Numbered from the stretch's first letter, positions 26,031 to 36,261 are shown. The stretch: 60,422 nt of DNA from Bacilli bacterium (GCA_049419605.1 JBMSKF010000006.1:1-60422), one strand, 5' to 3'. The notes: generated by a model from the letters alone, not told the origin. Program-made: numbers and translations.

Positions 26031-27740
26031 ATGAAGAAATTGATTAAACCTCAACATGCCATGTTCATCACATTGCTTTTGTCCTCTTGTGAATTTACAT
26101 TACCTTCCCTGAGCATCCATCCATCAAATAATTCAAGTACCACTACCAATGCTTCTGATCCAACGAATAGTTTTTTCAACCCATCCATTCAAAGTCCAGT
26201 TGATTTTACTGAACCCCCTACCATCCCAAATTTAAATTTACCAGCAGGAACTTGTGAAGCGAATAGTCAACCAAGAATCAGTTTAAATACCGACGAAGAA
26301 TATCGATTATTTTTTCATCCAACAACAAAAGTGATGATTGATTTTCACATCAGTAATGCCAATCTTTTACTTATGAATGAATACGGTAATCGTACAGCCG
26401 ATCATGATCGTTATGTCAATGCAGCGATGCGAATTGATGTGACACCTCAAAATGCACAAGTGATTTCCTATTGTTATCCAGTCGTTGGCATTCGGATGAA
26501 AGGGAATACATCAAGAACTGATTTTATAGAAGAAAATGGTGCATTCACAAATTTTATGAATTTGAAAGTCTCATTCTCCACGGATGATCCTACCGATGGA
26601 CGCATCCCCAATCAACAATTCATTGGGATGACAAGAATGGATTTAAAATGGAATCGTAATTTTGATCACACTTATGTTCGGCAAATTTTTGCCCACAAAC
26701 TTTATGGCGCGTATTTACCTTTTGCACAAGAAGCTACTTTAGGGGGGATTCGGTTCTTACAAACTGGTGTTGCCCAGGAATTTCAAAATAATTATTTGGG
26801 TTTGTACACGATCACTGAACCAATGGATCGTCGATTTTTCGCAAGACGCCTTGGAGATAATGCTGAAGCAGATGGGAATCTTTATAAAGTTTTATACTCT
26901 GCAACTGGGGCTGCGGATTTAACAAAATTCAATGCAGTCAACAGTGATGGAACCAATCACTTTCGCACGGGTAACAAAATCGGTGTTGAAGATAATGCGG
27001 CCAATTATCATCCAAGTTATGATTTGAAGACCAATACAACCATTCCTAACTTCACTGATATCGTCAATCTCATTGGAGAATTGAACGCGAGTCAGGACGT
27101 TAATCTACAAGCTTATCGTCAACGCGTCGAAGCGGTCATTGATATTCCCACGTTCTTATGGATGGAAGCCATTGCATATTTTGTTGGCAATCCCGATGAT
27201 TATCGAAATAATGCAAACAACCTTTATTTATATTTTTTACCAAGTACAGGAAAGGCCTATCCAATTCCTTATGATCTTGATCGTGGTTTTGGTAGTAACG
27301 GGGATTGGGATCCCACGCTTAATCCATTTGATCAATATGGACCGAGTATGACCAAAGCGACCCCTTTTCAAGACGCTTTATTAAAAGACTGGAATCAAGG
27401 AAGACTGAATCCATTGCATCGATTAACCATTTATCAAAATGCGTATGCGGGTTATCAAAACCAATATCGCGACCATCTTCAAACTATTCATGAAAGTGGT
27501 TGGATAGATTCGGTCAGTAATGGAACAGGAAATTATGAAGGATTATTTTATACCCTTCATCGCCAATATCGTGCAACCTATTATCCCCAATCTGGACAGT
27601 ACCAATTCATCCAACCAACTTCCCCTGCGCTTCGAGATGTCTTTGTTATCTTCTCTTTAAATCAAAAAGTAATGGCAAACTTAACCTTTCATGAGTATAT
27701 TTCCGCAAAGGTAAGCACTTACATTTCTTCGGTTTCATAG
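26031..27740 (+). CDS. CotH-family atypical kinase, predicted lipoprotein
   Basis: Lipobox LLSSC, a Ser/Thr/Pro linker, then GIRMKGNTSR, YLGLYTITEPMD, GNLYK, NPDDY.NNANNLYLY and IPYDLDRGFG. Confidence 0.82.
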   Translation: MKKLIKPQHAMFITLLLSSCEFTLPSLSIHPSNNSSTTTNASDPTNSFFNPSIQSPVDFTEPPTIPNLNLPAGTCEANSQPRISLNTDEEYRLFFHPTTKVMIDFHISNANLLLMNEYGNRTADHDRYVNAAMRIDVTPQNAQVISYCYPVVGIRMKGNTSRTDFIEENGAFTNFMNLKVSFSTDDPTDGRIPNQQFIGMTRMDLKWNRNFDHTYVRQIFAHKLYGAYLPFAQEATLGGIRFLQTGVAQEFQNNYLGLYTITEPMDRRFFARRLGDNAEADGNLYKVLYSATGAADLTKFNAVNSDGTNHFRTGNKIGVEDNAANYHPSYDLKTNTTIPNFTDIVNLIGELNASQDVNLQAYRQRVEAVIDIPTFLWMEAIAYFVGNPDDYRNNANNLYLYFLPSTGKAYPIPYDLDRGFGSNGDWDPTLNPFDQYGPSMTKATPFQDALLKDWNQGRLNPLHRLTIYQNAYAGYQNQYRDHLQTIHESGWIDSVSNGTGNYEGLFYTLHRQYRATYYPQSGQYQFIQPTSPALRDVFVIFSLNQKVMANLTFHEYISAKVSTYISSVS

Positions 27741-27754
27741 TAAAATACCCATGT

Positions 27755-27841
27755 GCAGTCGTGGCGGAATTGGCAGACGCGCTAGATTCAGGGTCTAGTA
27801 CCTTCACCGGTGTAGGAGTTCAACTCTCCTCGACTGCACCA
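27755..27841 (+). tRNA. tRNA-Leu (CAG)
   Basis: GCAGTCG/CGACTGC acceptor stem, loop TTCAGGG, long variable arm and CCA. Confidence 0.96.
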
Positions 27842-27937: not shown

Positions 27938-28879
27938 TTGTCTATGAACGCACCAAAAGTGTCGAAGTTCAAAGCGATGGATCGCAACATGAAATTGCTT
28001 AATCTATCACTACTGACTTTAGTACTCGCAGGGACGGTGATTTTTGGCATTCAAGTGTTATTTTTAACCTTGACTGTGATTATCGTTGATCTCATCTTAG
28101 AAATCATCTTTGCCTATTTTCGCAATAAACAGATAGATGAGGGTTGGCTCTATAATGCGCTCATCCTTGTTTTAATATTGCCACCAACAGTACCACTATG
28201 GATTGCAGCCGTAGGTGCAGCATTTGGTGCATTCTTTGGCAAACTTGTGTTTGGCGGTTATCCTAAATATGTTTTCAATCCTGCAGTGGTAGGCGTCATC
28301 TTCTTGATGATTTCCTTTCCTCAGTATTTAAATACGCAATGGTTAAATCCAGTTACCGGTGTTGTGGGTACAGGAACACCCATTGGTTCATGGTTACGTG
28401 GCCAAGATGTTCTTGCAACGTATCCATTAATGAATTTATTTTTAGGAACAGCTCCCGGTGTTGTGGGTGAAGTTTCTAGAGGACTCGTCATCTTATTAGG
28501 TTTCGTATTGATTATCAACAAAGTGATTGATTGGAAAGCACCTCTTGTTTTCTTGGTTTCATTTTTAATATTTGGATATCTTGGACAAGTCTTAGGTTTA
28601 GCAGGATTTTATGATCCGTTTATTGCGGTTATCGTTGGCATGGTTGTCTTCGGTGCTTTCTTTATTATTACGGATAAACCAACCCTACCTGTGACCACAG
28701 GTGGTCGCATTGTCTATGGCATCCTATTTGCATTCTTTACAGTTTTAATTCGGGTATTTGCAGCATGGCCAGAAGGTGTGTTATTTGCGACGATTATTAT
28801 GAACGTCCTCTCACCTTTATTGGATGCAACCATTTCTCGCAAACCTATCGCTAGCATTCTCACAGCGGAGGTTAAATAA
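27938..28879 (+). CDS. nqrB: NqrB/RnfD-family subunit (short form, lacking the NqrB N-terminal extension)
   Basis: IDEGW (NqrB-like EG), KLVFGG..VFNPA, GTGTP (flavinylation Thr), GVVGEVS, ITDKP, WPEGV and NVLSPLLD. Confidence 0.8.
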   Translation: MSMNAPKVSKFKAMDRNMKLLNLSLLTLVLAGTVIFGIQVLFLTLTVIIVDLILEIIFAYFRNKQIDEGWLYNALILVLILPPTVPLWIAAVGAAFGAFFGKLVFGGYPKYVFNPAVVGVIFLMISFPQYLNTQWLNPVTGVVGTGTPIGSWLRGQDVLATYPLMNLFLGTAPGVVGEVSRGLVILLGFVLIINKVIDWKAPLVFLVSFLIFGYLGQVLGLAGFYDPFIAVIVGMVVFGAFFIITDKPTLPVTTGGRIVYGILFAFFTVLIRVFAAWPEGVLFATIIMNVLSPLLDATISRKPIASILTAEVK

Positions 28880-28880
28880 C

Positions 28881-29510
28881 GTGAATAAATATGTTCGAAT
28901 GATGTTATTTGTCGCGGTATTAGGAACAGTGTCTGGTGGTTTACTTTTTGGCACAGGTGCAGTCACAAATACTCTAATTGAAGCAAACGAAGATGCGTTA
29001 TTAAAATCAGAGGTACTTACCTCTCATGGTATCGAATACAATTTTTCCAATATCCATGAAGTATTTGCAGAAACCACTTCCGTTATCACTGTGGATGGAG
29101 AATATGAAGGCGAAGATTACACCTATACGTATTACCAAGATAACGCCAATGGCACCATTACCTTCGGTTTTGGTCCAACCTTCGGTGGTGGTGTATGGGG
29201 ACCTATCATTGGATTACTTTCACTAGAAAGTGATTTCACGACCATCGTAAGAATTTCAGTTTTACAACAAGGAGAAACCCCTGGACTTGGTGGGATTGTT
29301 GCCACTCGGACTTACTTAGATACTTTCAATGGAAAATCAATTGGGATTGGTGATGATGCATTGGCTATCATCAAAGATTTAGATCCAGCGACCGCGGAAG
29401 CGAATGAAGTTCGTTCCATTACGGGAGCAACGCGTACTTCCAATCAATTCAATATTATTCTCAATAATGCTTATGTTGCACACCGCTTGGTGTGGGAAGC
29501 GAGGGCTTAA
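28881..29510 (+). CDS. nqrC: NqrC/RnfG-family FMN-binding subunit
   Basis: N-terminal TM, GVWGPI.G, GETPGLGG and ITGATRTS flavinylation motif. GTG start with SD GGAGG. Confidence 0.85.
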   Translation: MNKYVRMMLFVAVLGTVSGGLLFGTGAVTNTLIEANEDALLKSEVLTSHGIEYNFSNIHEVFAETTSVITVDGEYEGEDYTYTYYQDNANGTITFGFGPTFGGGVWGPIIGLLSLESDFTTIVRISVLQQGETPGLGGIVATRTYLDTFNGKSIGIGDDALAIIKDLDPATAEANEVRSITGATRTSNQFNIILNNAYVAHRLVWEARA

Positions 29511-29512
29511 GG

Positions 29513-30145
29513 ATGAAGAAATTTTTTGCTCGGTTAAATTACACAAAATCCTTTAACGTTTTAAAACGTGGATTTTGGTTGGAAAACCAAGTTGCGATTG
29601 CAGTCTTAGGGATTTGCTCTTCGTTAGCGATCTCAAATAAAGTTGAAAATGCGATTGCAATGGGTCTTGGGGTAACCTTTGTTACCATGGCCTCTTCGGC
29701 TTTTATCGCGTTAATTCGTAACTTCATACCTTCTCAAGTGAGAATGGTGACGTACATGGTTATCATCTCTACCTTTACCATTGTTGTTCAAATGTTCTTA
29801 AAAGCTTACTTCCCAGCCCTTGCGAATCAACTTGGTGCTTATGTTGGTTTAATTATCACCAACTGTATTGTTATGGGTCGCGCGGAAGCTTATGCAGTGA
29901 AAAATCCTGCTCAGTATGCTCTTGTGGATGCGTTTGCATCAGGCATGGGTTATATGATTGTGCTAGTTTCTGCGGCAACCATTCGAGAAATCTTAGCCTT
30001 TGGAACTTGGCTCAATATGCCTGTGATGGGTGAAGGGTGGGTCCCATGGACCATTATGGCCTTAGCTCCAGGTGGTTTCTTTATCATTTCTTTATTTGTT
30101 TGGTTTATTCGTGAACGTCAACAATTCCAAGAAGGGAATCAATAG
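29513..30145 (+). CDS. nqrD: NqrD/RnfE-family subunit
   Basis: VLGICSSLAI, IRNFIPSQVRM, GLIITNCIVMGRAEAYA and LAPGGFF motifs. Confidence 0.88.
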   Translation: MKKFFARLNYTKSFNVLKRGFWLENQVAIAVLGICSSLAISNKVENAIAMGLGVTFVTMASSAFIALIRNFIPSQVRMVTYMVIISTFTIVVQMFLKAYFPALANQLGAYVGLIITNCIVMGRAEAYAVKNPAQYALVDAFASGMGYMIVLVSAATIREILAFGTWLNMPVMGEGWVPWTIMALAPGGFFIISLFVWFIRERQQFQEGNQ

Positions 30146-30155
30146 GTAAACTACT

Positions 30156-30740
30156 ATGAATTTAATCGAATTATTTATTGCTTCCATCCTCAATCACAAT
30201 ATCGCGCTTGTTTATATTTTAGGTATGTGCCCATTAATTGCAATTTCTACCAACGTAAAAAATGCAACCGGCATGGGTGTTGCTGTTGTCTTGGTGACAG
30301 GTTTAACTGCGGTCATCAACTGGCCAGTTTATGAATTCTTAAAAAGTACTGGAACAGAAGATTTATCTTTATTAGTTTTCATGATTACGATTGCTACCAC
30401 CGTTCAATTTTTAGAAATCTTAATTGAAAAATATTTACCATCTATTTATAGCACCTTTGGTATTTATTTACCCTTGATTACCGTCAACTGCATCGTCCTT
30501 GCAGTTTCATTATTCTTTGTGAACCGTGATTATTCATTTGCGGAAACTGCTGTTTATGGTTTCGGTAGTGGTTTAGGCTGGATGATCGCAATCATCCTTT
30601 TAGCTGCCATTCGCGAAAAAATGTTTGTTCGTTCCGATTTACCTAAAGGTCTCATGGGTAAAGGTATCGCCTTTATCTTACTCGGCATTATTGCGTTAGC
30701 ATTCATCGGATTTACCGGAATTGCCAACGTCACCGCATAA
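30156..30740 (+). CDS. nqrE: NqrE/RnfA-family subunit
   Basis: LGMCPLIAIS, VQFLEI, YLPLITVNC and GSGLGW..AI..LAAIREK motifs. Confidence 0.88.
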   Translation: MNLIELFIASILNHNIALVYILGMCPLIAISTNVKNATGMGVAVVLVTGLTAVINWPVYEFLKSTGTEDLSLLVFMITIATTVQFLEILIEKYLPSIYSTFGIYLPLITVNCIVLAVSLFFVNRDYSFAETAVYGFGSGLGWMIAIILLAAIREKMFVRSDLPKGLMGKGIAFILLGIIALAFIGFTGIANVTA

Positions 30741-30752
30741 GGAGATAGACAA

Positions 30753-31835
30753 ATGGATTTTACTACCCCCTTAATACTCTTAGGTGTCTTACTCGCGGTC
30801 ACACTTTTGATTGTGATCTTTGATATGGCCTTTGGGAATAATGCAGCCCGGGCTGTCATCGTCAATGGCAAAAAAGAAATACCCGTTACGAGTGATGAAA
30901 CGTTACTCAATATTTTATCGAGTCAAAAAATCTTCGTACCTTCTGCTTGTGGTGGAAAAGCAACCTGTGGTTTTTGCAAGTGCACCGTTACTGAAGGCGG
31001 TGGTGACATCAAACCCACCGAATTAGCCTTCATTAAACCAGAAGATGCTGCTAAAGGCGTTCGCTTATCTTGCCAAGTTAAAGTGAAAGGCAATATGAAA
31101 GTAGAAATTCCTGAAAGTATGCTCTCAGCAAAAGAATATAAAACGGTTATCACCGAACTCAAGGATTTAACTTACGATATTAAATTAATTCGCTTTAAGT
31201 TAATTTCTCCATCCACGATGGACTTTAAACCCGGCCAATATGCCCAGTTAAAAGTTCCTGGTATTGATGTGATTCGCGCTTACTCCATTGCCTCAAACCC
31301 AAGCGTAAAAGATTCCATTGAAATGATCGTACGTTATGTACCTAATGGTGCGGCGACAAGCTATGTCTTTAATGCCCTTCAAAAAGGCGATAAGGTGACG
31401 ATAACCGGACCTTATGGTACCTTCTTCTTACAAGAACAATCCAAACGTGACATTGTCTGTATCGCTGGTGGTTCAGGAAAAGCACCGATTCGTTCGATTT
31501 TAGCACGTTTAAAAGAACAAGGCATGACTCGAAAAGTTCGCTATTTCTTTGGAGCAAAAGCGGTTAGGGATTTATATTACACCGAAGAAATGAAGCAATT
31601 ACAAAAGGAATATCCCAACTTCGAATATATTCCTGCTCTTTCTAATCCATTACCACAAGATAATTGGGATGGGGCTACAGGATTAATTACTGATGTTTTA
31701 GATCGTATGACAGGTGATTTAGCAGAGTCAGAAGCTTATTTATGCGGATCTCCCGGTATGATTGATGCATGTATTAAAGTATTGAATAAACATCAAATTA
31801 AGCCGGCCAATGTCTTCTACGATAAATTTGCTTAA
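30753..31835 (+). CDS. nqrF: NqrF NADH-oxidising subunit (TM + 2Fe-2S + FAD/NAD)
   Basis: TM helix, SACGGKATCGFCKC...RLSCQVKV, RAYSIAS, GGSGKAPIRS and YLCGSPGM. Confidence 0.88.
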   Translation: MDFTTPLILLGVLLAVTLLIVIFDMAFGNNAARAVIVNGKKEIPVTSDETLLNILSSQKIFVPSACGGKATCGFCKCTVTEGGGDIKPTELAFIKPEDAAKGVRLSCQVKVKGNMKVEIPESMLSAKEYKTVITELKDLTYDIKLIRFKLISPSTMDFKPGQYAQLKVPGIDVIRAYSIASNPSVKDSIEMIVRYVPNGAATSYVFNALQKGDKVTITGPYGTFFLQEQSKRDIVCIAGGSGKAPIRSILARLKEQGMTRKVRYFFGAKAVRDLYYTEEMKQLQKEYPNFEYIPALSNPLPQDNWDGATGLITDVLDRMTGDLAESEAYLCGSPGMIDACIKVLNKHQIKPANVFYDKFA

Positions 31836-31847
31836 ATAAACTAAATG

Positions 31848-31879
31848 AAAAACCTCAGTAATGATACTGAGGTTTTTTT
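31848..31879. terminator. Bidirectional terminator after nqrF
   Basis: AAAAACCTCAGTA-ATGA-TACTGAGGTTTTTTT. Confidence 0.88.
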
Positions 31880-32501: not shown

Positions 32502-32816
32502 ATGGAAAAAAACATAATTCAAAAACTGATTAATGAAGATAAAAAAGCGAGGGAAAAAATTGAAAATTTAAAAAAGAAACACGAAATATTTTTATCACAG
32601 CTATCTGAATTAAAAAAGAAAAATGAAAAAAAACATCAAAAAAAGTATGATTTAGAAATTGAAGCAATCGAAAATAAATTTAAACAACAATTAGAAGCAT
32701 TAACAATTCGACTTAATCAACATGGACAATCAGATTCAGAGAAAATCGCATCATTAGATAAAAAAGAAATTGAGCAATTAATCTCAAAATTATTCAATAA
32801 AATTAAGCAAGGTTAA
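32502..32816 (+). CDS. Probable V/A-type ATPase peripheral stalk subunit G/H
   Basis: 104-aa Lys/Glu coiled coil (IIQKLINEDKKAREKI). First gene of the V-ATPase operon. Confidence 0.65.
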   Translation: MEKNIIQKLINEDKKAREKIENLKKKHEIFLSQLSELKKKNEKKHQKKYDLEIEAIENKFKQQLEALTIRLNQHGQSDSEKIASLDKKEIEQLISKLFNKIKQG

Positions 32817-32820
32817 ATAC

Positions 32821-33864
32821 ATGAGTAATGACGCTAATAATGCCATTGTTGCCAAAAGTAAAGCAATTTATGGTAATAATTTAAAGGCTCAACAGTTCAT
32901 TGAGTTAAGTGAAAAAAAATCTTTGGCGGATTTTGTTTTAACACTGAAAAATCATCCTCAATTTAAAGAATCCTTTTCGGGAATTCAAGAACAATTAATC
33001 CGAAGAAACCAATTAGAAACGATTTTAAAAAAAATATCTCTACAACAAGTTATTCGAATTATGAAATATGCGGTTGGTAAAGAACAACCTTTTTTTTATC
33101 AACCGATTATGTCACTTGAAATTGACTTCATTTTATCGATGATTCGCTATTTTTTCGATACGAGTGAAGATAAAAAGGTTCCTTTGCAAGATATTCCAGT
33201 TTTTGTTATTCAACATAGTAAATTACCCTATGATGACCTAATTAAAGCAACAAAATTTAGTGACTTTATCAATTATTTAAAAGGCACTATTTATGAGTCC
33301 ATCCTCAATCCTTATCGTTTAGCTACTTCTGACAATTTTCCATTTTCATTGATTGAAGGAAAGTTTTATGAATTACGCTACGAAGTTATTTTTGAACATA
33401 TCCAACACTTCTACACTGGTCAAACTAACCATAATTTAAAAAAAATGTATCAAATCAAGATTGAATTGGATAATATTTCTAAAATTTATCGTTTAAAGAA
33501 ATTCTATCAAGCAACTCCGGAAATGATTAAACCCCTTTTAATGCTTAATTATTCCAGGATAAAACCATCCATTTGGGATGAAATTTTGGCGATTAAGGAT
33601 CCTGAAAAAGTATTAACATTTTTAAGGCAATCTTCATTCTCTACCTTAAAAGGTGATGATGAGTATGTTTATGTGGAATATGATGTGGAAAGAATTAAAT
33701 TTAATCTTGCAAAAAGGTACCTTTATTATTCCTCAAATCCTGCAGAAGTATATGCTGCATTCTTAATTCTTGAAGAAATTGAACAAATTAATTTGACTAA
33801 TATTATAGAAGGAATAAGATATAACTTGGATTCAAATGATATAAGGAAAATCTTGATCTATTAA
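32821..33864 (+). CDS. V/A-type ATPase subunit C (AC39/d)
   Basis: NAIVAKSKAIYG N-terminus and EQINLTNIIEGIRY C-terminus. Confidence 0.85.
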   Translation: MSNDANNAIVAKSKAIYGNNLKAQQFIELSEKKSLADFVLTLKNHPQFKESFSGIQEQLIRRNQLETILKKISLQQVIRIMKYAVGKEQPFFYQPIMSLEIDFILSMIRYFFDTSEDKKVPLQDIPVFVIQHSKLPYDDLIKATKFSDFINYLKGTIYESILNPYRLATSDNFPFSLIEGKFYELRYEVIFEHIQHFYTGQTNHNLKKMYQIKIELDNISKIYRLKKFYQATPEMIKPLLMLNYSRIKPSIWDEILAIKDPEKVLTFLRQSSFSTLKGDDEYVYVEYDVERIKFNLAKRYLYYSSNPAEVYAAFLILEEIEQINLTNIIEGIRYNLDSNDIRKILIY

Positions 33865-33865
33865 A

Positions 33866-35797
33866 ATGGCAATTTCAAAATTAAAATTAATTACGATAAC
33901 TGCAAATGCTTCATCTTTACAAGATGTTATTTTTGAATTTGTTCAACTAAAAAATTTTCACCCTATCAATGCTTCCACCTTTATCAATGCTGTTCATGGT
34001 CTAAAATCTTTACAAAGTGAAAATTCTAATAATTGGTTGTTACAATTATTGAAAGAAATTGAAAAAGATTTGGCGATGGAAATTCCAGTTGTTAAATTTA
34101 AAGATAAAGGCATTCAATTAAACTTATTAGAAGAAACAACAAAAGCGATTCGGCAACAATTAAGTAATTTTGAAGATAATTTGAAATCTCTTGTAACTAA
34201 AAAGCAAACCCTCACAGAAATTTTAAATCAAGTTAAACACATTGAAAAACTTGAGGTTTCTCTAGATGATTTATTTACGTGTAAATTTGTACATGCACGC
34301 ATCGGAAGAATTCCAACCGATAATCTTGAAAAGTTAAAGTACTATCAAAGTCGACCATTTGTTATTAAAACTTTTGAAACTGACGAACATTTTAGTTGGT
34401 GTATATATTTGACTACCTCTGAATATGAAAGAGAAGTGGATAATCTTTTTTCTTCCTTATTCTTTTCTCGAATCCATATACCAGACTATGTTCATGGTAC
34501 ACCAAGTATTGCGATCAAACAGCTTGCAAAAGAAATCTCTGATAATGAAAATTCGATCAATGACATAAAAGAAGCTAAAATTAAATTCATTCAAAAAAAC
34601 TTGAAACAATTATCTGAAATTAAGGGACAATTATTGTTCAATCAAAGGATGGTTGCTGCAAAACAATATGTAGTTGGCATTGGCGATAGAATCACAATTA
34701 ATGGATTTACTGAAGATTTCTCCGTTGATGAAGTTGTGAAGGCCTATCGCGGTTATGATGGGGTTAAAGTTGAAATTAAGGATGCTGAAGCAGACCGTCG
34801 TATTTTACCTCCAACAAAACTTAAAAATAACCTAATATTTAAGCCTTTTGAAATGTTTGTTGAAATGTATGGTTTGCCTAGCTACCATTCAATTGACCCA
34901 ACCCCATTTCTTGCGATTGCTTATACCTTACTTTTTGGAATGATGTTTGGAGATCTTGGCCAAGGATTATTGTTATCTTTAATGGCATGGGTCATGTCTA
35001 AGTTTAATAAGAAAAATCGTTTATATCGTGTGGGTATACGCTTGGGTTTTTCATCTGCCTTCTTTGGTTTGCTATATGGGTCTGTGTTTGGGAATGAAAC
35101 TTGGTTAAATCCCTTCTATGAAAACATTTTAGGTCTACCTAACAAACCAATCGAAGTTCTATCTCCTGAGTTTACCCTTACGTTACTTGGTGCTGCAATA
35201 GGTGTTGGTGTATTGTTACTTTTGACTTCAATCATTTTAAACATTTATGTTAAGTTTAAAAATCGTAATTTTATTGAGGGTTTATTGTCACATAATGGAT
35301 TTGCAGGGATTTTTCTCTATGGTTTCTTAGTCATGGGTTTTGGCTTAAATTTAATGGGTGCACCATCTATTTTTAACACTTTAACCATTTCCGCATTTGT
35401 ATTTTTCCCCCTTATTTTAATTTTTTTGAAAGAACCCATCCATCGTTTGATGCATGGAGAAAAAGCATTTCCACAAGGTTTTGGATCGTATTTTACAGAA
35501 GGTTTTTTTGAACTTTTTGAAGTTTTATTGTCTTATATCACAAACACAATGTCATATTTAAGGGTTGGCGGTTTCATTCTATCTCACGCAGGCATGATGT
35601 TAGTCGTTGCCACCTTAATGAACATGGTTGGAAATGCTTCCTTACTCGTGTTTATTTTGGGAAATTTATTTGTAATGGCCTTAGAAGGCTTAATTGTAGG
35701 TATTCAAGTTTTGCGCCTACAATTTTATGAAATGTTCTCTCGCTATTACGAAGGAAATGGAACCGCCTTTTCGTCATTATTGACGGAAGAAGCATAA
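33866..35797 (+). CDS. V/A-type ATPase subunit I (a)
   Basis: PPTKLKN, MYGLPSY..IDPT, FGMMFGDLGQG, NTMSYLRVGGF and RLQFYEMFSRYYEG motifs. Confidence 0.95.
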   Translation: MAISKLKLITITANASSLQDVIFEFVQLKNFHPINASTFINAVHGLKSLQSENSNNWLLQLLKEIEKDLAMEIPVVKFKDKGIQLNLLEETTKAIRQQLSNFEDNLKSLVTKKQTLTEILNQVKHIEKLEVSLDDLFTCKFVHARIGRIPTDNLEKLKYYQSRPFVIKTFETDEHFSWCIYLTTSEYEREVDNLFSSLFFSRIHIPDYVHGTPSIAIKQLAKEISDNENSINDIKEAKIKFIQKNLKQLSEIKGQLLFNQRMVAAKQYVVGIGDRITINGFTEDFSVDEVVKAYRGYDGVKVEIKDAEADRRILPPTKLKNNLIFKPFEMFVEMYGLPSYHSIDPTPFLAIAYTLLFGMMFGDLGQGLLLSLMAWVMSKFNKKNRLYRVGIRLGFSSAFFGLLYGSVFGNETWLNPFYENILGLPNKPIEVLSPEFTLTLLGAAIGVGVLLLLTSIILNIYVKFKNRNFIEGLLSHNGFAGIFLYGFLVMGFGLNLMGAPSIFNTLTISAFVFFPLILIFLKEPIHRLMHGEKAFPQGFGSYFTEGFFELFEVLLSYITNTMSYLRVGGFILSHAGMMLVVATLMNMVGNASLLVFILGNLFVMALEGLIVGIQVLRLQFYEMFSRYYEGNGTAFSSLLTEEA

Positions 35798-35811
35798 AAG
35801 GAGGAATATTT

Positions 35812-36261
35812 ATGTTTTTAGATGTGGTGTTCTTAGTATTGCCGATCGTCGCAATTACGTTGATTACGTTACCTTTGTTGCCTGTATTTAAAGGTAAATT
35901 GAAAGGAACGCCAGCAAAACAAAGACTTTTCATTCATATTGGCAGCTTCTTTGGTGTAGTCTTTCTATCCTTTTTAGTACCTGCCATCGTTTCTCAAAAT
36001 GTTTATGCTGTGGATGGTGAAGTTGTAGATTTATTAACAGGGACTATTGCTCAGGGGTTAGGATTTGTTTCTGCGGCATTAGCCACTGGACTTTCATCTT
36101 TAGGGGCTGGTATTGCGGTTGCAGCAGCAGCACCAGCAGCAATTGGCGCCTTTTCAGAAAATGAAAAGAATTTCGGTAAGGCATTAATCTTTGTGGCATT
36201 AGGTGAAGGGGTTGCAATTTACGGATTGCTGATTTCGATTTTAATAATCAATCAACTCTAA
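35812..36261 (+). CDS. V/A-type ATPase proteolipid subunit K (c)
   Basis: GLSSLGAGIAVA...FGKALIFVALGEGVAIYG: a single c hairpin with an N-terminal 2-TM extension. Confidence 0.92.
   Translation: MFLDVVFLVLPIVAITLITLPLLPVFKGKLKGTPAKQRLFIHIGSFFGVVFLSFLVPAIVSQNVYAVDGEVVDLLTGTIAQGLGFVSAALATGLSSLGAGIAVAAAAPAAIGAFSENEKNFGKALIFVALGEGVAIYGLLISILIINQL

Follow-up and report, generated by a model that had tools for sequence, protein, structure and literature searches.

The locus described here raises the question of where the electrons go in a predicted NADH-oxidising complex that is encoded without NqrA or RnfC. The operon occupies positions 27938 to 31835, forward strand, of a 60,422-nucleotide (nt) stretch (JBMSKF010000006.1:1-60422, hereafter the window), which is contig C6 of the 998-kb, 38-contig, 92.6% complete genome of Bacilli bacterium GCA_049419605.1. 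Its product is predicted to be an NQR-type membrane complex that oxidises NADH and lacks NqrA, built of five subunits corresponding to NqrB through NqrF (B to F below). The five genes are each intact, and purifying selection acts on them; while F, the four cluster cysteines of D and E and the flavin threonine of C are invariant across the genus and related loci where recovered, the flavin sites of B are not.

The operon and its cofactor sites

As the initial annotation had described, five tightly packed genes lie between a tRNA-Leu and a strong terminator. The tRNA-Leu(cag) gene (27755 to 27841, forward strand; ARAGORN) is immediately 5' of the operon and is followed, in the same orientation, by open reading frames (ORFs) for an NqrB/RnfD-like membrane subunit of 313 amino acids (aa) (27938 to 28879; Pfam NQR2_RnfD_RnfE), an NqrC/RnfG-like subunit, anchored in the membrane at its N terminus and carrying an FMN_bind domain (28824 to 29510), NqrD/RnfE-like and NqrE/RnfA-like subunits (29492 to 30145 and 30156 to 30740; both Pfam Rnf-Nqr), and an NqrF-like NADH dehydrogenase subunit of 360 aa with an N-terminal transmembrane helix (30753 to 31835; Fer2, FAD_binding_6 and NAD_binding_1). 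A bidirectional, intrinsic-terminator-like hairpin with a 14-bp stem and a T-run (31847 to 31878) begins 12 nt past the stop codon of F. The gap between the tRNA and the first ORF is 96 nt, close to the 100 nt originally estimated, and leaves no space for an nqrA or rnfC gene upstream. Junctions between the ORFs range from -56 to +12 nt as listed, or from 1 to 12 nt with the starts suggested by relatives: B probably begins at ATG 27944, giving 311 aa, the length of the database form, and C probably at GTG 28881, giving 209 aa according to the genus alignment.

The cofactor motifs named in the initial annotation were present in the window. F has the plant-type 2Fe-2S ferredoxin, flavin adenine dinucleotide (FAD)-binding and NAD-binding domains, with the motifs C-x5-C-x2-C...C, RAYS and GGSGKAP. 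Both cluster cysteines were found in D (LGICSSL, ITNCIVM) and in E (LGMCPLI, TVNCIVL), and the flavinylation motif of C is S-I-T-G-A-T. The flavin mononucleotide (FMN) site of B, GTGT, aligned with T236 of Vibrio cholerae NqrB, which we take to be the covalent-FMN threonine of that protein. Alignment to the V. cholerae subunits also bore out the reported conservation of acidic residues, which presumably act in Na+ transport: E55, D246 and D296 of B are equivalent to NqrB E144, D346 and D397, D146 of D to NqrD D133, and E87 of E to NqrE E95. At the positions of the riboflavin ligands of V. cholerae NqrB, given by Kishikawa 2022 as Thr162, Asn200, Asn203 and Asp346, the window B has N, Y, N and D, so that two of the four are altered.

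All five subunits scored under the cut-off of the corresponding NCBIfam equivalog (nqrD 213/235, nqrE 198/248, nqrF (TIGR01941) 278/295, nqrC 66/144, nqrB 167/414). Among chains of solved structures, D and E matched V. cholerae NqrD and NqrE best (155 and 166 bits, with 137 and 138 bits for RnfE and RnfA), and B showed a slight preference for RnfD (124 bits) over NqrB (116 bits). The alignment of B starts only at V. cholerae NqrB residue 130; the protein is thus RnfD-sized and lacks the NqrB N-terminal region, as previously noted.

The claim that the cofactor sites of B are intact was not supported, as they are not conserved in the genus. For comparison, species-representative genomes were scanned with an alignment of B, yielding 80 named loci. 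Identity to the window within the genus was 69-96% for F, 71-97% for E and 66-99% for D, but 36-87% for B and 38-86% for C. Relative to the two closest relatives, the ratio of nonsynonymous to synonymous substitution rates (dN/dS) lay between 0.010 and 0.026 in D, E and F, and between 0.066 and 0.074 in B and C, figures that are rough since dS was 0.8-2.1; across the genus, D, E and F gave 0.01-0.19. Within the genus, the rate of evolution of B is about 3.4 times that of D, E and F. The ratio of B to D mean corrected distances was 3.38 in the genus, 2.34 in other Mollicute operons lacking an A subunit (A-less), 1.46 in other A-less operons, 0.96 in forms with both RnfC and NqrF and 1.03 in canonical NQR, and is descriptive only, since kin are not independent. 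The B sequences of the genus were monophyletic (SH-aLRT 96, B tree), so that the cause is acceleration and not replacement of the gene.

Of 93 close B homologues (at least 50% identity), 35 had T at the FMN-threonine position, 47 had N, 9 had L and 2 had S, and the N200 equivalent was Y in every one, whereas 17 of 19 distant homologues had T at the FMN site and 17 had N at the N200 equivalent. In five members of the genus the FMN loop has been deleted, and in four of these the N203 equivalent is V or L. At least three different replacements (N, L and deletion) at the same site point to repeated loss. The B motif GG-x-G-[KR]-N-x-F-N-P was otherwise invariant in the 80 loci, the departures being this clade and three Acholeplasmataceae loci that group with it (support 82, B tree). 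By comparison, the threonine of the 'GAT' of C was retained in 13 of 13 genus sequences, the cysteines of D and E did not vary in any locus, of the 80 or of the genus, from which those genes were recovered, and the acidic residues of B were conserved throughout. No RNA dataset was listed for the stretch. In one sequencing run, taken as RNA only by guess, contigs of a relative about 90% identical, which cannot show transcription, covered 19 of 30 bins, one contig spanning the tRNA and B. Genes described as 'NADH-ubiquinone oxidoreductase related' are reported in the zrk13 paper to be up to 20-fold up, which may bear on expression.

Electron exit and its alternatives

The reading that we tentatively favour, while stopping short of calling it probable, is that NADH electrons run from F through D/E to C and exit at the outer face of the membrane, possibly with Na+ pumping through D/E. 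Electrons would pass from NADH to the FAD and 2Fe-2S centre of F, from there to the intramembrane 2Fe-2S cluster of D/E, and on to the covalent FMN of C at the outer face. In this genus they would leave at C, and not travel back through B to a cytoplasmic or quinone acceptor; B would be retained mainly as a scaffold. Candidate acceptors are O2, free flavins, Fe(III) or humics, and the outward flavins of a second Rnf-like complex. Kumar et al. 2025 place Na+ translocation in RnfA/E at the 2Fe-2S cluster and give RnfD a role in electron transfer only; in the model they propose for the Acetobacterium woodii Rnf, Na+ is taken up on reduction of the A/E cluster, and oxidation of the cluster by the outer FMN releases it to the outside. 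If that model is valid, the path from F through D/E to C would be a complete Na+ pump, Na+ would be moved by this conserved half-path alone, and the eroding B would be a subunit dispensable for pumping.

Searches of the genome covered the 92.6%-complete assembly. NqrA_N had no match in the operon or elsewhere in the assembly. RnfB, cytochrome bd and a UbiA-family (quinone) prenyltransferase were likewise not found, the last in a search whose control was positive in 14 of 14 genomes; together, the missing prenyltransferase and cytochrome bd make a canonical quinone exit unlikely. NqrM also gave no match, but its control search was silent in every genome and the result carries no information on presence. 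The initial annotation had listed apbE as absent, which is correct for the operon but not for the genome: ApbE and the riboflavin-synthesis genes ribD and ribBA are present on contig C9, in the second Rnf-like cluster, and provide flavinylation capacity. FMN_bind domains were confined, genome-wide, to the NqrC-like subunit and RnfG. A third FMN_bind match, considered as an extra outer-face acceptor, was glyceraldehyde-3-phosphate dehydrogenase, a false positive, and FAD_binding_2 matches, considered as a fumarate-reductase-type flavoprotein, were merely the Rossmann N-termini of other flavoproteins.

A number of points weigh against an exit at the outer face. Domain searches of the organism's own genome found no extracytoplasmic acceptor protein and no true fumarate-reductase-type flavoprotein. 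At the FMN position the B of the window still has T, a residue shared by each of its 27 closest homologues of at least 285 aa (at least 86% identity); the NqrC of Paracholeplasma-type loci likewise has Gly at position -1, so flavinylation of B may persist here. The N and Y found at riboflavin positions are still able to hydrogen-bond, and B is full length, under purifying selection and in possession of its conserved acidic residues. Other A-less lineages mostly keep the B flavin sites, so the general A-less type probably uses B, and its exit problem is not solved by an outer exit in this genus. Rival published models, mentioned in Kishikawa 2022 and Kumar et al. 2025, place Na+ translocation in NqrB, and both the pump activity and the Na+ specificity of this complex are predicted from sequence alone.

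Several of these points also count for a full U-shaped path, from F through D/E and C to the FMN and riboflavin of B and then to a non-canonical acceptor on the cytoplasmic or membrane side (exogenous quinone, soluble flavin, O2 or a redox protein), which we consider rather unlikely. No A subunit would be needed in such a scheme because NqrA carries no cofactor; a 2025 review describes NqrA as having neither cofactor nor assigned direct function, and lists ubiquinone with NqrB. The threonine kept by the window and its nearest homologues, the retained D346 and N203 equivalents, the purifying selection on B and the motifs largely preserved by A-less lineages outside this clade all fit a working B. 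However, 56 of the 93 close homologues have N or L in place of the FMN threonine, the loop of which is deleted in five genus members, the N200 equivalent is uniformly Y and the T162 position is N in the window, searches of the genome gave neither a UbiA-family prenyltransferase nor a quinol oxidase, B is without the N-terminal stretch by which NqrB shapes the inhibitor/quinone region, and the Mollicute loci show no conserved neighbour gene fit to be an acceptor. That the operon is instead a decaying remnant, horizontally acquired and being lost with B going first, appears scarcely credible. It is restricted to the genus (0 of 150 other genomes sampled in the order), its B and C genes are fast-evolving and the B flavin sites are eroded, as decay would predict, but there are no stops or frameshifts in the five genes, either here or in 12 fetched relatives (D not being called in one), D, E and F remain 66-99% identical across the genus with dN/dS of 0.01-0.19, full 311-aa B homologues occur in dozens of metagenome clusters, and the operon has been retained in a streamlined genome of about 1 Mb.

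The second Rnf-like cluster lies outside the window, on contig C9 of the same genome (G000; locus L004:3567-12922), in the order ribD-ribBA-RnfC-RnfD(604 aa)-RnfG-RnfE-RnfA-NusG_II-PF07456-ApbE. Its RnfC looks intact, with an FMN/NAD motif and two 4Fe-4S motifs, RnfD retains the N200, N203 and D346 equivalents, and RnfG has STGAT, but RnfE and RnfA have none of the four intramembrane 2Fe-2S cluster cysteines, all of which are retained in three other Mollicute RNF operons and two canonical ones. The 604-aa RnfD has a C-terminal extension, past an extra transmembrane helix, with flavinylation-like motifs (ITGAS and GSGAT). These were not accepted as flavin domains, being two motif look-alikes with only a sub-threshold FMN_bind match (E 0.071). 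A Na+/H+ exchanger gene lies near the cluster. Among the genus relatives of the C9 cluster (L151-L163), cysteine-less RnfE and RnfA are common to about ten genomes, while one genome keeps four cysteines and another three, indicating that the loss occurred within the genus. In the Rnf operons of Paracholeplasma vituli, Peloplasma aerotolerans and Mycoplasmatota zrk2 (L148, L149 and L150), the RnfE and RnfA cysteines are retained; no ORF was labelled RnfB there by phmmer alone, and two ORFs of about 180-380 aa stand at the expected place of RnfG.

A trans-encoded RnfC had been proposed as the missing partner, and an intact RnfC does exist, although within its own RnfCDGEA operon, of a type that works without NqrF elsewhere. 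In a partnership, this RnfC would dock on B, or the FMN of C would pass electrons to the outward flavins of RnfCDGEA and thence to NAD(P)+, making a split-loop, ion-coupled transhydrogenase. We regard this as highly improbable. The two complexes are complementary, the five-gene complex keeping F, the D/E cysteines and the FMN of C with an eroded B, and RnfCDGEA keeping RnfC, RnfD and RnfG without the cysteines or RnfB; RnfC is also present in five of five named genomes with A-less operons, and sister operons encode an RnfC-like gene in cis. On the other hand, transfer from NADH to NAD+ has no driving force, and the nucleotide-binding region of F resembles, by eye, that of NADH-specific NqrF. 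Of 150 genomes sampled in the order, 99 have RnfD-like genes and none has an NqrF match, so that the Rnf-like complex works alone there, and RnfC shares its operon with its own RnfD. The cysteine-less RnfE and RnfA are found in three genus genomes without an NqrF match (these being 71-82% complete), while the two genomes that keep four and three of the cysteines do have the five-gene operon. Obligate coupling of the two complexes was accordingly rejected, as it is not borne out by their distribution. A related and quite unlikely proposition is that evolution has split the NQR/RNF machine in this genus, the five-gene complex being the pump half (NqrF, the D/E cluster and the FMN of C, with a flavin-poor B) and RnfCDGEA the return half (the flavins of RnfG and RnfD, and RnfC); the former would be a minimal, surface-discharging, NADH-driven Na+ pump, with possible exchange via outward flavins.

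Distribution and ancestry of the operon

The outer-face exit is proposed for this genus, and the operon itself appears to be a genus-level addition. With NqrF as query (E ≤ 1e-40), matches were found in 14 of 17 other genus genomes, the three misses being 71-82% complete, and in none of the 150 other genomes sampled across the order. The RnfD-like gene found in 99 of these 150 is of the second-complex type, which indicates that the Rnf-like complex is ancestral in the order and the five-gene operon was added later, presumably by transfer. The gene order B-C-D-E-F without A recurred in all 12 fetched genus relatives (D was missed by the ORF picker in one) and in 51 of the 80 related loci, which have no RnfC- or NqrA-type gene directly upstream; the synteny is therefore not peculiar to the window. 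Hosts of these A-less loci include Bacilli metagenome-assembled genomes (MAGs), Acholeplasmataceae, Izemoplasmatales, Paracholeplasma vituli, Peloplasma aerotolerans, Spirochaetes, Peptoniphilus, Thermotalea and Propionigenium. Pfam was applied to those ORFs upstream of A-less operons that are large enough to be NqrA; they are unrelated, none being NqrA. A further 23 of the 80 loci have an RnfC-like gene directly 5' of B, and of the remaining six, five end at a contig edge and one has an RnfC-like gene with B not called.

Ancestry was examined with three quick IQ-TREE trees with SH-like approximate likelihood ratio (SH-aLRT) support: one of B, one of D and E jointly, in which each of the paralogous families roots the other, and one of concatenated D+E, rooted on five RNF operons and including 15 canonical NqrABCDEF operons from two phyla only. 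The Thermotogae and Clostridium ultunense A-less operons were not part of these trees. The three trees agreed in placing RNF, a separate clade in the D+E tree (SH-aLRT 100), outside an NQR-type superclade (SH-aLRT 100), and the reciprocal rooting of the joint tree concurred. One side of the superclade comprised canonical NQR (SH-aLRT 100), two operons with an NqrA-type protein bearing 4Fe-4S motifs, and the other A-less operons (SH-aLRT 97). The opposite side (SH-aLRT 99) comprised the Mollicute A-less clade (SH-aLRT 100), which includes this genus, the RnfC+BCDE+NqrF operons and a Spirochaete ferredoxin-only type. The window joined the Acholeplasmataceae/Izemoplasmatales A-less operons at SH-aLRT 100 in both the D+E and the B trees. 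Its placement outside canonical NQR and RNF means that it is neither a split canonical operon nor an RNF, and the sub-threshold equivalog scores of all five subunits agree with the initial annotation on this point. The suggestion of an Rnf/NQR intermediate, if taken to mean a primitive form, fared less well, as the nearest sister operons carry an RnfC-like first gene. Since both A-less groups have sisters with an RnfC- or NqrA-type gene, A-lessness arose most simply by loss, at least twice, and the missing subunit in this lineage is probably a secondary loss. The trees and the RnfC+BCDE+NqrF operons also suggest that recruitment of NqrF took place in a complex that still had an RnfC-type subunit with Fe-S clusters.

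Several related gene arrangements were seen among the loci. In L069 and L078, sister to canonical NQR (support 93), the first protein has NQRA_2nd and NQRA_SLBB domains yet carries 4Fe-4S motifs. Six-gene operons from Omnitrophota, Planctomycetota and unclassified MAGs (L033, L037, L041, L051, L060 and L076, with L050 ending at a contig edge) combine an RnfC-like first gene (RnfC_N, Complex1_51K and two 4Fe-4S motifs) with BCDE and a full NqrF; they are possibly a transitional form between RNF and NQR, and in three loci of this type a UbiA prenyltransferase or polyprenyl synthetase gene follows 3' of the operon. Six Spirochaete loci (L028, L036, L043, L044, L046 and L056) and one from Pirellulales (L059) have RnfC and BCDE with an 'F' that consists of the ferredoxin domain only (317 aa in L059, 149 aa in the others). 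In the Spirochaete members it is followed by the gene for a NuoE-like 2Fe-2S protein (checked with Pfam in L028 only) and by further genes, and six of the seven loci encode, downstream, a protein of about 600 aa that weakly resembles RnfC. In 18 of the 80 loci, F is directly followed by a conserved ORF of about 155 aa; these are A-less operons from Spirochaetes, Victivallales, Propionigenium, Syntrophaceae and a Bacillota MAG (for example L066:7578-8045, L086:13315-13770 and L075:9596-10069). Its product is soluble and without a Pfam family, it mostly starts 10-24 nt 3' of nqrF, with a few up to 54 nt away or overlapping, and a protein-atlas look-up gave only hypothetical clusters. It may be a sixth subunit in those operons; as a sixth gene of the operon described here it was discarded, having no match in this genome in a six-frame hmmsearch (E up to 10).

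As to the flanks, a CotH-family lipoprotein-like gene, with a signal peptide and Cys, lies directly 5' of the tRNA-Leu (26031 to 27740), and large same-strand ORFs of 370-576 aa are found upstream of B in most genus relatives. V-type ATPase genes (32502 to 36261 and beyond: subunit C/AC39, a 116-kDa I subunit and a 149-aa c subunit) begin 670 nt 3' of the operon, just past a tRNA-Leu/tRNA-Arg pair. Together with the Na+/H+ exchanger gene, they are consistent with a sodium economy but prove nothing.

Significance and relation to known systems

The site at which Na+ crosses NQR and RNF is disputed between NqrB/RnfD and the D/E (A/E) pair, and there is also dispute over what the cofactor-less NqrA does. 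The complex described here occurs naturally without NqrA, and repeated loss of flavin sites from its B contrasts with the invariance of F, D/E and C, which makes it a ready-made minimal system. If the complex pumps Na+ on NADH oxidation, the D/E model would be strongly supported, and NqrA and the flavin chemistry of B would be dispensable for pumping; if the split-halves proposition is true, it would provide a natural test that Na+ moves through D/E and not NqrB. The complex may be the main sodium-gradient builder of a fermenter of about 1 Mb without a quinone-synthesis marker, beside V-type ATPase genes. The variant found in this small-genome aquatic bacterium, with its eroded B and complementary, Fe-S-less Rnf, makes the sodium-path question experimentally approachable.

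The five-gene layout is not new. Operons of nqrBCDEF without nqrA were reported in 2014 for Thermotoga (Pseudothermotoga) thermarum and lettingae (PMC4148951), and in 2018 for Clostridium ultunense and Alkaliphilus metalliredigens (PMC5924567) and for Ca. Izimaplasma ZiA1, with a mention of Acholeplasma palmae (PMC6256511); in these papers the acceptor is called 'unknown' or 'more negative than quinone'. A search of open-access papers and preprints found no biochemical study of the A-less type, only mentions in genome papers, and it stands outside the standard evolutionary account (Reyes-Prieto et al.). The layout is thus known but uncharacterised, and what the genus adds is an eroded B and a complementary, Fe-S-less Rnf variant. 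The published clusters share with the window the five genes, their order, the absence of NqrA and a separate Rnf elsewhere in the genome; they differ in that the window genus shows the eroded B flavin site, the 3.4-fold faster B and the genus restriction, and has a companion Rnf without RnfB and without the four cluster cysteines.

Compared with the Na+-NQR (NqrABCDEF) of V. cholerae (PDB 7xk3 and 8a1u), the window complex has the same NqrF-type input, D/E cysteines, NqrC FMN motif and acidic residues. It differs in having no NqrA and a B without some 90-100 N-terminal residues, a region that in NqrB, according to Kishikawa 2022, intertwines with NqrA and shapes the inhibitor/quinone region. 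F is 360 aa, compared with 404-414 aa in 14 of 15 canonical operons, no quinone-synthesis marker was found in the genome, and the complex falls outside the canonical clade. With RNF (RnfCDGEAB; Clostridium tetanomorphum 7zc6 and A. woodii 9eri) it shares a homologous core (NqrB/RnfD, NqrC/RnfG, NqrD/RnfE and NqrE/RnfA) and an RnfD-sized B, and the proposed principle of pumping at the A/E cluster may apply, but the operon lacks RnfB and RnfC and the input is NqrF with NADH and not ferredoxin. The flavinylation-associated 'NQR/RNF-like' systems of Meheust et al. 2021 (PMC8238504), a paper that also describes multi-flavinylated RNF clusters, in which an NqrB/RnfD membrane domain is fused to an NAD-binding domain, are one-way systems that use the other half of the path, whereas the window retains the half from F through D/E to C, with D and E present, B and F as separate genes and a complete NqrF. 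Because that work defines 'NQR' operationally by the presence of NqrF in a flavinylation cluster, A-less operons such as this one could have been counted there as NQR.

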